DNA of 63,894 nt, counting the filler, from Reclinomonas americana ATCC 50394 (lineage: Eukaryota): NCBI GenBank assembly GCA_048213135.1. It is 12 parts of 9 records of this genome, joined end to end, with 100 filler letters (N's around TTAATTAATTAA, not from the genome) between each part and the next. Parts side by side here need not be neighbours in the genome. Positions count along the whole stretch, not along the records: positions 34,161 to 46,368 come from PS015883.1; 11 more parts are not named here. The stretch is one strand, 5' to 3'. Shown in pieces: positions 34,996 through 39,580 of this stretch (its first letter is position 1; each line of letters begins with the position of its first letter). The translations under genes were made by a program, and so were the position numbers. The notes beneath the pieces are model-generated. The model saw only the letters and a list, made by a program, of their open reading frames with translations, did not search any database and had not been told where the DNA came from.

Positions 34996-36322
34996 CTACT
35001 CTGTCATTTTCTTCCTCCCTTCCCCCCTCCCTCCTCCCTCCCCCTCCCTCCCTCCCACCCTCAATCGTCTTGCCCTTTTTTGCCTGCGACACTCCAGGCA
35101 CCATGATGGGCTACAGCGGCGGCCTGCTCATGCTCATCATCAACCTGGGCGTGTTTGTCGGTTTCCGTGCACTCGAATTGAGTTACTGGGGCTACCGCTT
35201 CAACTTGGTGCTGGCCGGTGCTTGGATGTTCTTGTGGACCTTTGTCAGCTATCCACTCATCAAGCCTCGACCTGGCCCCGAGTTGCCACCGGGCATCAAC
35301 TACGTCACGTTTGGCCTGAAGCGAACGTGGAAGACGCTGAAGAAGGCGCCACGACTGAAGGTCTTGTTGGGATTTCTGTTGCTTGATCGTTTGTCGCACA
35401 TGTGTTGACGAAAATGGTCTGTTTGGTCCGTGTGCAGGAGGTCTTCAAGTTCTTGCTGGGTTCGTAGTGCTTCACTAGCAGATCCCGTTGTAATCATGAG
35501 CTCACCTCCCTCTGCCTGCACGCACACAGCCTACCTAATTTTCAGTGACGGCTACTCGGTGCGCTGATGTCACTCGCTCTTTATTTCGTCCTTCGTCAGT
35601 TGCTCACCTTCGTCGCTGTTGTTGCTGTTACTCCTGGTGCAGACGGTGAGGACACACACACGCAAGTGCTGCCTCCTGTACAACACCTCTTGTTGCTCAC
35701 TCGCTGCTGCTGCTGCTCGCACGCAGGTGTCGTCCGTGTCGACAATTTTCGCCCAAGAAGTCATGTTCTTCAACGAAGTGGAACTGGCGTTGCTCGTCGT
35801 CTCGGTGCAAGTGTTTGCGCTGATTGGCACGTACATTTGGCTGTGGGTGAATCGCGTGTGGCTCTCCGCCAAGACTGTGGTCTACTGCAATTTGGTACGC
35901 TTGTTTTTCATGTTTCTCTCTTCTCTCTGCTCGCCTCGGTCTGACTCGGCTGTGTGTGTAACACCAAAACAGGCCTGCATGGCGGTGCTGCCGATCTACG
36001 GACTCTTCTTCCTTGAGCAGAAGTGGGAGCTGTTCGTGCTGACAGTCTTCTACGGTCTGTCGATTGGCTCAGTGCAAACTTTCTGCCGATCGATTTTCTC
36101 GGAGCTGCTGCCGAAGGGATTCGAGGCCGAGTTCTTCAGTTTCTACGCTATTACGGGAAGAGGTGCGTTTGTCACGGCAGCAGCGGCAAGGGCACTGCAC
36201 GGCACAGGGCATCGATAGATTATGTTGTTGCACGTTACGCTGGCTTGCACAACGCGTAATGATGCACCACAGCACGTAGCCACAGATCGTGTTTGGCGTT
36301 GTGAAGCTCTTTCTCTCTCTCT

Positions 36323-36372
<50 letters not shown>

Positions 36373-37181
36373 TGCGCCGACTGCCCCTATTTAGCCATGC
36401 TGTAGTTGACGCTTTTCTCTTTCTCTCTCTCCCTCTCTTCCTCCATTCCTGCTCAGTCTCTCTCCTGTCGCACTGCCTGTCTATTGAGCCGCGGAGTAGC
36501 TGATGCACTTTTGCCTTGATATGCACTTGCTCTTGCGCCCTTTCCCCTTTCGATCTCTCTCTCACTCGCTCTCTCTCCCCTCCCTCCCTCCATTCCTGCT
36601 CAGGCTCTCTCCTGTCGCACTGCCTGGCAGTTTAGCCGCGAGGCACATGATTCGTCGAGAATGCTCTAACTTTTGCACCCCTTTCCCCTTTCTCTCTCTC
36701 TGTCACACTCACTCTCCTGTTGCACATCAAATCCGTTTCTTGCCTAAACACCCCTTCTCCCCTTCCCCCTTCCCCCCTTTCCTTCCCCCTTTTTGCAGGC
36801 ACGAGCTGGATGGGCCCCCTGACCTTCGCCCTGGTCAAGGAATACACCAACGACTACCGCATCGCCTTTGTATCGATCCTCGGCTTCTTTGTGATCGGCG
36901 CCCCGCTGCTCATCTTTGTCAACATTGACAAGGGCCGCCGAGACGCCCACAACTTCCAGCGCGACACGCGCGGCCGCTCCTCCTCCGTGTCCCTACCCCC
37001 CAGCGGCAACGCCATCACCGACGGCAGCAGCAGCGCGCCCTCGAACACCGAGCACCAGCCACTGCTGCTGGCGGCCTCCTCGAGCGCCAATGGCCACACC
37101 TCATACGAGACCACCCCGTCGAGACCAGCACGCACCGGCAGCGCCCTCGACGCCGGCGACGAACCACCACCCTATCAATAG
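32767..37181 (+). CDS. Atg22/UMF1-like MFS transporter, paralog 1
   Basis: RERTGWYVLE...SFLPP, LGPLADFG, KPRPGPELPPG, AYLIFSDGYS|T|VSSVSTIFA, GSVQTFCRSIFSELLPKGFEAEFFSFYAITGRGTSWMGP. Confidence 0.88.
33400..33900. repeat. Degenerate ~80-90 bp minisatellite in the first intron of Atg22-like paralog 1
   Basis: Recurrent TGGATCGTCATCTGCACCTGCAGAGACCCCCTGTTTCCCGTCGATCATCGCGTTCTCCT units, about 5-6 partial or complete copies. Confidence 0.75.
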
Positions 37182-37316
37182 CCCATGTTTTGTTTCCCTC
37201 TTTCCCCCCTCCTCTCCTCTCTCTCACTCTGTTTAATCGTTTTGCTTGCGGCACCATCTATGAATTGCTTGCTGATAGAAATTTCAATCAACTCATATGC
37301 ATTGCGCGAAAAAAAC

Positions 37317-37401
37317 ATGCAAAGAGACGACGACGATGTCTCCTCGTCGAGTGACGCCGTCAACTCGCAAGCTGTAATGGTGCAAGCGCGCACAGGCTCA
37401 G

Positions 37402-37436
<35 letters not shown>

Positions 37437-39580
37437 CTCTCTCTCTCTCTCTCACTCACACTCACACTTACTCAGGGTTCGAGAACGATGAGGCACCTTC
37501 TGATCGACGTGAGCGATTCGGATGGTACTTGTACGACTTTGGATCGGCCGTGTTTGTGACCTCAGTCATCACTGCGTTCCTTCCACCGTTGCGTAACAGA
37601 CACACAGAGAGAGACACAGAAAAATCGGAGAAATTAAGCAACAACTCACTCTGTCTGTGTGTTGCATGCTCGTGCAGCTATCTGACGCACGTGGCCGACA
37701 AGTGTGGTGATGGCAAATACGTGTATCTCGGCTCATTGCCGATCGCCAACGATTCGCTCTTTACATATGCAGTGTCAGTGTCGGTGTTCTTTCAAGTTTC
37801 GCGCGCACAGTGGTTGTTTTGTCTACCCTCTGACCGCCGTGCTCACTACTCGCTGGCAGGTGATTGTGTTCATTCTCACTGGTGCACTGGCCGATTACGG
37901 GCGATTGCGCAAGACGCTGCTGGTGTTCTTTACGTTTATGTGCGCGGGAACGACCATGTCCATGATCTTTATCGATCCGTCGCTGTGCACGTGGTGGCTT
38001 GGCGCGTTGCAGATCATTGTCGGCAACGTGTGCTATGGTACCGCGATTATCTTTTACAAGTTGCGTTGCTGGCTGCTGCTGCACTGCTGGCTCCGCACAC
38101 TCACTGTTGTTGTCGTTGCAGTGCGTATCTCCCGCTAATGTCGCGCAATCACGAGGATGTGCTGAAGATCACCGGGGGCGATGGCGACGAGGGCATCAGC
38201 AATGCGCGGTTGATGGCCACCACCGACACGCTGTCGGTGGCGGAGCGCATCGAGAAGGCGCGGACGGGCGCGGAGAACACGATTTCGTCGCTCGGCTATC
38301 TCACTGGCTACCTGGGCGGCCTGGTGATGGTCATCATCGACGTGGGTATTCTGTTCCTGTTTAAGACGTTCTCGGAGAGCCTCGGCTACCAGGTCATTCT
38401 GGCGGCGGCTGGTGGATGGATCTTGCTGTTTGCGCTGATCGCCTTCCCCATGTTGAAGTCTCGACCGGGCCCTCCGCTGCCACCGGGCTCCAGCTACATC
38501 TCGTTTGGGCTGAAGCGCGCCGGCAAGACAATCGGCAAGGCCAAGCACTTGAAGGTGTGTGGTGCATGCTGCGCAAGGGGAGAGAAAGAGGGAGAGAGAG
38601 GACTTGTGCTCACACTTTTCTGCGCCCGCAGCACACGTTCCTCTTCCTGCTGTCGTACTTGTTGCGTGGCGCGCCTCCCAAGTCGCTCCTCTTCGTCTGC
38701 TCACACACTGTGTTCTCGCTTGGCGCAGCATTTACTCGGACGGCTATCAGGTGTGCTTTCGTGTGACTTCTCTCCTCGAACACACTTTTCGCTTCTTTTC
38801 TCACTCTGTTGCTTCCCTCGCAGACGGTACCCATATCGCCCTTCCGCACAACATGTGCCTCTCTCTCTCTCTCTCTCTGACTCCTTTCTCCACCACCACA
38901 GATCTCGTACTGCGCCACCATTTTCGCGTCAGAAGTATTGCAGTTCACCGCCCTTGAGATCGCCTACCTCATCGTGGAGGTGCAAGTGGTCGCCCTGCTC
39001 GGCTGTTACCTCTGGCTGTGGTTGAACCGACGCGGCATGCGTGCAAAGACCATCGTGCTCACCAACTTGGTTTGCGCTGACCTGCTTGTCTGTTTTACTG
39101 CACTCCTCGGCTAAACGGCTGTCCCCCGCGCAGGTGATCATGCTGGCGCTTCCATGCTACGGCTACGCCTTCCTCACCTCCAAAGCCGAGCTCTACATCC
39201 TCGCCGTGGTCTACGCCGCCAACCTCGGCTCCGTACAGAGCTTCTCGCGCTCCATCTTCTCCGAGATGTTGCCGCGCGGCTACGAGGCCGAGTTCTTCTC
39301 CTTTTACGCCATCACCGACCGCGGTACGAGCTGGATGGGCCCACTGGTCTTTGGCCTTGTCAACCAGTCCACCGGCTCACCTCGTGTGGCCTTCTTCTCG
39401 ATCGCGGCCTTTTTCGTGGTCGGCGGCCCCATTCTGCTCTTTGTCGACGTTCGAAAGGGCAAGCACGACGCGGAAAAGTTCGCCGAGTCGACGCCGGCCT
39501 CGGGAGAAACCTCTGTGCCTGTGCCCATGACGGAAGTGCGTTCAACGGGCACCTCAGAGGAGGAGGAAGAGGATGTTTGA
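37317..39580 (+). CDS. Atg22/UMF1-like MFS transporter, paralog 2
   Basis: RERFGWYLYDFGSAVF, GALADYGRLRK, KSRPGPPLPPG, SYFIYSDGYQ|T|ISYCATIFA, GSVQSFSRSIFSEMLPRGYEAEFFSFYAITDRGTSWMGP. Several intron positions are shared with paralog 1. Confidence 0.9.

Follow-up and report, generated by a model that had tools for sequence, protein, structure and literature searches.

The window analysed here is a stretch of 63,894 nucleotides (nt) from Reclinomonas americana ATCC 50394 (assembly GCA_048213135.1), and two tandem genes within it, paralogs A and B, encode transporters of the Atg22/UMF1 type that each appear to contain a coding exon of a single codon, ACG. We estimate the probability that both triplets are real and constitutive micro-exons at roughly 0.86, and that they are real exons, whatever their mode of use, is more probable still. 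The evidence from DNA alone that this organism splices exons of 3 nt is strong, because the encoded residue is required by the protein family, the exon occurs in a duplicate copy and in a second haplotype, and a third paralog is free of introns at the site. We infer constitutive use solely from the conservation of the residue across the family.

The preliminary description of this DNA had reported CAG-ACG-GT at one site in each gene, and both the letters and the coordinates proved exact (Table 1). Translation yields SDGYS-T-VS in A and SDGYQ-T-IS in B, with the micro-exon supplying the Thr in each case as that description had it. All four flanking introns are in phase 0, run from GT to CAG and carry a branch-like CTCAC or CTGAC 24-40 nt from the 3' end. 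They are complete introns of 73-84 nt, and the claim that they are of normal size agrees with a curated set from three paralogs, in which the introns shorter than 200 nt (n=28; one 636-nt intron and introns with gaps were left out) span 59-90 nt and the acceptor scores range from -5.1 to 11.1. If the micro-exon were not used, a single intron of 168 nt (A) or 151 nt (B) would take its place; the downstream exon of A starts at 35727. With no more than 15 nt between AG and GT, the triplets of both A and B are microexons by length. A central YAG-ACN-GT arose in 165 of 20000 dinucleotide shuffles of the combined interval for A and in 62 of 20000 for B; the corresponding figures for a central YAG-NNN-GT were 2273 and 388. 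Contig C955, which is 92% identical over both transporter genes to the contig that holds them (C906) and reads as a second haplotype of the region, keeps CAG-ACG-GT intact at both sites, while 22 mismatches and a number of gaps distinguish its copies of the four introns.

The need for the encoded residue was assessed with 178 homologs, 29 of them obtained by word search and the others taken from the top 150 among 14709 profile hits, which biases the set to nearer relatives. Six were dropped, namely four proteins shorter than 330 amino acids (aa), one longer than 800 aa and P0028, apparently an intron read-through from a closer relative, and 172 were aligned. The distance from the motif Asp to a downstream aromatic residue is 12 residues, free of gaps, in all 172, and the column four places after the Asp holds Thr in 150 and Ala in 15. 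A family alignment had been named beforehand as a check on the exon, and not one of the 172 homologs is gapped at this residue. The SDGxxT pattern given for Atg22/UMF1 transporters is refined in its first position: the family motif is [NS]DGxxT (Asn in 110 and Ser in 29 of the 172), and SDG[YFHC]xT marks the subgroup nearest A and B, the Thr being found two places on in 12 of 12 fetched [SN]DG[YFHC] proteins. Against a profile built from the homologs only, inclusion of the ACG exon raises the score by about 11 bits in either gene, from 262.1 to 273.2 bits in A and from 447.2 to 458.8 bits in B. When in-frame, stop-free splice solutions were enumerated from GT or GC donors and AG acceptors within the two intervals, the ACG exon ranked first among 31 in A and 15 in B. 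An AlphaFold model of homolog P0125 (predicted local distance difference test score, pLDDT, 91.8) displays a major facilitator superfamily (MFS) fold with two helix bundles and places the motif inside a helix of 30 residues (295-324), the seventh long helix once a short linker helix is left out of the count. Skipping of the exon would thus be predicted to remove one residue from the middle of transmembrane helix 7 (TM7). A sequence search for a solved Atg22 structure found none; only SV2 matched, weakly, with its ADGVE aligned to the motif.

The third paralog, C, lies on contig C564, with allele-like pieces on C2644 and C13009, and encodes DGYQ-T-IN at equal spacing within one 22-nt exon; its nearby introns differ, one being located at the Asp and the other at a Gly that comes three codons past the Thr. 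A metagenome scan gave 523 pattern matches and from these two loci, both distant (L047 and L048), in which SDGxxT is uninterrupted and the same Thr lies inside an ordinary exon, so the micro-exon is absent from both. The two introns that flank the Thr occur in A and B only. Two other intron positions are common to A and B and absent from C, and two are common to all three paralogs. In a quick tree by maximum likelihood, with 32 rows and no bootstrap, the genes group as (C,(A,B)), with values of 98 and 92 in the Shimodaira-Hasegawa-like approximate likelihood ratio test (SH-aLRT) and branch lengths of 0.78 (A) and 0.44 (B). Since A and B are sisters that share both flanking introns, the micro-exon is older than their tandem duplication and has been kept, as the preliminary description had proposed, and its two copies are one evolutionary event rather than two. 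Paralog C and the two outgroup loci lack both introns, which argues that the exon is not ancient within the family. The simplest explanation of the structure is that two introns were gained once C had split off, and gain would be likelier than a loss in C.

That the paralogs are otherwise clearly divergent is also borne out. Two blastp blocks align A with B, at 54% and 48% identity, and 39 of 83 four-fold third positions are identical between the two genes. Compared with 195 unrelated introns, the upstream introns of A and B resemble each other no more than unrelated ones do (69 and 71 of the 195 score as high), and the same holds for the downstream introns (28 and 18 of the 195). An apparent likeness of the downstream introns, reached by only 4 of 500 letter shuffles, vanished when real unrelated introns were used as the standard. 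The exon is thus very probably not the product of recent gene conversion.

Introns near the site have also turned over. The same 51 coding bases are divided 22+29 nt in A (35438-35558) and 29+22 nt in B (38632-38750), and because this upstream intron differs by 7 nt between the genes, local intron turnover is indicated; the offset may stem from separate gains, from sliding, or from each gene having lost a different one of two introns around an ancestral 7-nt exon. Further downstream, an intron after ITGRG/VTDKG (36163-36798 in A, compared with 39325 in B) is present in A and C and missing in B, which suggests an intron loss in B.

We propose that each ACG triplet is a constitutive coding micro-exon that would contribute, in mid-TM7, the conserved Thr of [NS]DGxxT four residues after the motif Asp. 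Two phase-0 introns would have come to flank this codon once, in the A/B ancestor after its split from C, and the tandem duplication would have passed the arrangement on to both genes. Splicing would most likely operate by intron definition: every one of the 73-84-nt introns contains a complete set of donor, branch site and acceptor and would be excised whole, the two in succession, so that the length of the exon would hardly matter. The codon would be kept because the protein needs the residue, and its third base, G, probably because this donor class favours G at -1.

The splice signals of the genome bear on this proposal. Candidates for U1 small nuclear RNA (snRNA) comprise one with a canonical 5' end (L051:1501-1673, minus strand, on C343) and variants (L049:1501-1654 and L050, on C429 and C479) whose 5' end is one base longer and complementary to an abundant GTTGCG class of donors; both kinds score 64 bits, where Rfam sets its gathering score at 69.5. 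The ACAGAGA box of U6 is canonical (L053). GTTGCG begins 7 of the 28 curated introns, and in a set of 456 self-trained calls it is the commonest donor 6-mer, with 91 occurrences. At all four donors beside the micro-exons, pairing with canonical U1 is at least as good as with the variant. G occupies -1 in 19 of 21 curated donors outside the GTTGCG class and in 2 of 7 within it, and both micro-exon donors have G there, as the third base of ACG.

Several points weigh against the proposal. Skipping of a 3-nt exon stays in frame, and frame logic therefore cannot force its inclusion. Eight bases shared between haplotypes at about 90% identity are weak evidence. The donor of the B micro-exon, GTACCC, is weak relative to the canonical U1 of the genome, with which it pairs at -1..+3 and +7 only, and it scored -10.1 in a first self-trained donor model, which had drifted from GTA donors. 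ACG makes up 34 of the 90 Thr codons in these genes, so that agreement in the third base has no significance on its own. Lastly, the preference for gain over loss depends on one paralog, two distant loci and a quick tree that lacks bootstrap values.

The alternative that survives best, which we nevertheless consider unlikely, is that a genuine exon is subject to alternative splicing, and that regulated in-frame skipping drops the Thr of TM7 as an off switch or to change the substrate; this role would be the reason why both paralogs have kept the exon. The exon is symmetric, its skipping leaves no stop, the B donor is weak, and there are reported precedents in Tuber NACHT-ANK genes (PMC4986451) and Drosophila hth (PMC7392893). 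However, none of the 172 homologs is without a residue at the site, the acceptors are strong, and the exon is a single one rather than part of an array. The site is also in mid-helix, where deletion of one residue would rotate the remainder of the helix by about 100 degrees. If such a switch were real, it would amount to control of a membrane protein by splicing of a single residue in a microbial eukaryote. A milder form, in which the spliceosome has no lower limit of exon size and newly gained introns may therefore be spaced by a single codon, conserved helices included, is likelier than the switch and can be entertained as a tentative possibility.

It is very unlikely that there is no micro-exon and that each gene has one long intron, encodes a protein without the Thr, and carries CAG-ACG-GT by chance or as a dead relic. 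A direct join would be in frame, and the 636-nt intron in gene A indicates that not all introns are short. Yet the motif would arise by chance with a frequency of 0.8% in A and 0.3% in B, both genes would need the same deletion, which is seen in 0 of 172 homologs, and a relic would not outlast the near-saturated divergence between them. We give still less credence to the shared exon having arisen from independent intron gains or from recent gene conversion between the tandem copies. The tandem position permits conversion, and local intron turnover is high, as seen in the 7-nt offset between A and B and in the two other introns of C nearby; but two coincident gains are improbable, the flanking Ser codons differ (AGT versus TCG), the introns of A and B align no better than unrelated introns do, and A and B share further introns absent from C. 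Least probable is that different splice sites supply the residue, whether GC donors, displaced sites or some further small exon. In its favour, two GC-donor solutions restore the spacing in A, at 268.7 and 268.2 bits, and a GC donor is apparently present in the other haplotype (L022:922). Both solutions nevertheless score below the ACG exon, lack the Thr and depend on non-consensus donors, and nothing comparable exists in B, whose second-ranked solution is 11 bits lower.

Table 1. Positions, in the window, of the two transporter genes, their micro-exons and flanking segments, and of further very small exons
Feature	Position	Strand	Remarks
Paralog A, Atg22/UMF1-like MFS transporter	34330..37181	+	PF11700 on single exons; modelled exons from 34330
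Paralog B, Atg22/UMF1-like MFS transporter	37317..39580	+	PF11700 hits; 10 exons, ~538 aa, open frame
Putative 3-nt exon ACG (Thr) of A, phase 0-0	35643..35645	+	CAG-ACG-GTGAGG; kept in C955 at L022:4085-4087
Putative 3-nt exon ACG (Thr) of B, phase 0-0	38824..38826	+	CAG-ACG-GTACCC; kept in C955 at L022:7272-7274
Upstream intron of A, 84 nt	35559..35642	+	GTGCGC..CAG; CTCAC 40 nt from 3' end; acceptor score 8.3
Downstream intron of A, 81 nt	35646..35726	+	GTGAGG..CAG
Upstream intron of B, 73 nt	38751..38823	+	GTGTGC..CAG; CTCAC 24 nt from 3' end; acceptor score 9.3
Downstream intron of B, 75 nt	38827..38901	+	weak donor; GTACCC..CAG
29-nt exon of A	35530..35558	+	ends in SDGYS; preceded by 22-nt exon 35438-35459
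22-nt exon of B	38729..38750	+	ends in SDGYQ; preceded by 29-nt exon 38632-38660
Two consecutive 3-nt exons, GGT and GAT	8240-8238, 8139-8137	minus	translation: complete MORN repeat YE-GD-F
4-nt exon GGCG between two 73-nt introns	55529-55526	minus	kinase-like frame hits a stop without the exon

The part of the window around the two genes, from position 34161 on, is 100% identical to C906 in a genome assembly of 108 Mb that is that of an intron-rich eukaryote with bacterial-looking contigs mixed in. In a search of the assembly with PF11700, all 25 candidates matched, and they comprise the two window genes, their C955 copies, paralog C with its allele-like pieces, and two genes on C1 (L026) and C13346 (L007); the last two are uninterrupted and bacterial-looking and were not used as paralogs. 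The label of Atg22-like paralogs was justified, as both A and B exceed the PF11700 cut-off of 24.1 bits on several single exons: 5 of 7 exons tested singly pass (46.7-123.4 bits), and the two 56-aa exons 3' of the micro-exons score 20 and 19.5 bits. The closest named protein matches are annotated "UMF1 family MFS transporter", and identity to the top matches is no higher than 31-38% when long stretches are aligned. With single exons as queries, protein searches found no transcript-like, near-identical protein. Yeast Atg22 functions in vacuolar amino-acid efflux.

The model of A contains an assembly gap at 34735-34902, and the true start of the gene is probably upstream of 34330, with a candidate ATG near 32768 picked out by eye. 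B was modelled from 37320, and its ATG at 37317 was read from the sequence. On the other haplotype, the segments L022:1044-1634 and 2793-2965, which fall within the gap of A, are apparently reversed relative to the gene and are probably mis-oriented scaffold fragments that carry its missing middle exons. A donor that is GT at window position 34634 is GC at L022:922, an apparent GT/GC donor polymorphism.

The preliminary description took the two ACG exons as independent support for single-codon exons being routine in this genome. As copies of one event they are not two independent cases, and routine use is only partly supported. Tiny exons do recur in the window. The two consecutive 3-nt exons that complete a MORN repeat lie among introns of 71, 98 and 68 nt, and the 4-nt exon, without which the frame is lost, precedes VIHRNVK in a gene that we take to be kinase-like from this motif, although the 32-aa piece has no Pfam hit; because the one keeps the frame and the others complete the repeat, the spliceosome appears to handle such exons. 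In a genome sample of 477 kb (non-N), consisting of 59 of 60 arbitrarily picked pieces, one having been dropped for unlike composition, a 3-nt exon followed a called upstream intron in 0 of 563 strict and 1 of 998 loose calls, which is the level of decoys, and exons of 4-15 nt numbered 6 compared with decoy means of 3-4. The same caller, whose donors were called by motif classes that catch 26 of the 28 curated donors, found a 3-nt exon after 3 of 142 introns in the window, two of the three being the A and B sites. The caller is noisy: judged by decoy acceptors, false calls may account for 140-525 of the 563, and of the two MORN exons it picked up only one. The sample thus indicates that exons of 3 nt do not make up a large fraction of all exons, and a rate of one or two percent is compatible with it. 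Elsewhere in the window, at about 29000-32500 on the minus strand, there are approximately four tandem copies of a small gene with a Gly-rich N-terminus and seemingly many exons of 5-14 nt, with candidates of 10, 11 and 14 nt at 29236, 29309, 29405, 30218, 30310, 31114, 31199 and 32096.

Exons of this size are rare but already known, conserved exons of 1-3 nt having been published in plants and flies. A constitutive 1-nt exon has been proven in Arabidopsis APC11 (PMC4674806), and across land plants APC11 and VPS55 have 1-nt exons that are conserved yet vary between paralogs (PMC8831610). For plant microexons of 1-15 nt, the introns on either side are proposed to be removed in sequence (PMC8831610). 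Like the exon of A and B, these are tiny coding exons between two GT-AG introns that have been conserved for long periods (PMC8831610, PMC4674806), and while certain paralogs have them as separate exons, in others they are fused with an ordinary exon. The plant microexons were demonstrated by RNA sequencing, reverse transcription PCR and reporters, whereas the exon of A and B is known here from DNA, and it differs from them in being in frame rather than frame-enforced, in lying inside a predicted transmembrane helix, in its very short introns and in its occurrence in a microbial eukaryote. The Drosophila homothorax gene (hth) has a 3-bp micro-exon 8, conserved across species as a one-codon exon, like that of A and B, and reported to be ACG in Bombyx (PMC7392893); it is, however, an alternative to a 48-bp form and encodes part of an interdomain linker in a 132-kb gene, and no such longer form scores well in A or B. 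The NACHT-ANK genes of Tuber melanosporum likewise have single-codon exons in a microbial eukaryote (Iotti et al. 2012, cited in PMC4986451), but those microexons are alternatively spliced and form arrays that serve diversification, in contrast to a lone exon at a position that hardly varies. Neither A nor B is such an array, each having one 3-nt exon with neighbours of 22, 29 and 168 nt in mixed phases. In micro-exon genes of the Schistosoma MEG or Tuber nank type, many tiny symmetric exons follow one another within a variable region. Within the partial coverage of our literature search, no report of microexons in Atg22/UMF1 genes was found, and the 45 plant clusters of PMC8831610 may include a transporter.

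The A/B pair would represent a clean and, at the level of DNA, unusually well controlled example of a single-codon exon. As a single case it is modest, and its worth lies in its use as a control. Gene finders are expected to lose the residue silently. Standard aligners may also misplace reads here, since an exon end of B reads CAG as the acceptor does, and the exon after the micro-exon in A begins with GTG like the donor. Moreover, since skipping is in frame, the rate of inclusion would gauge the raw fidelity with which this organism splices a tiny exon between introns of 75-85 nt, with no masking by nonsense-mediated decay.

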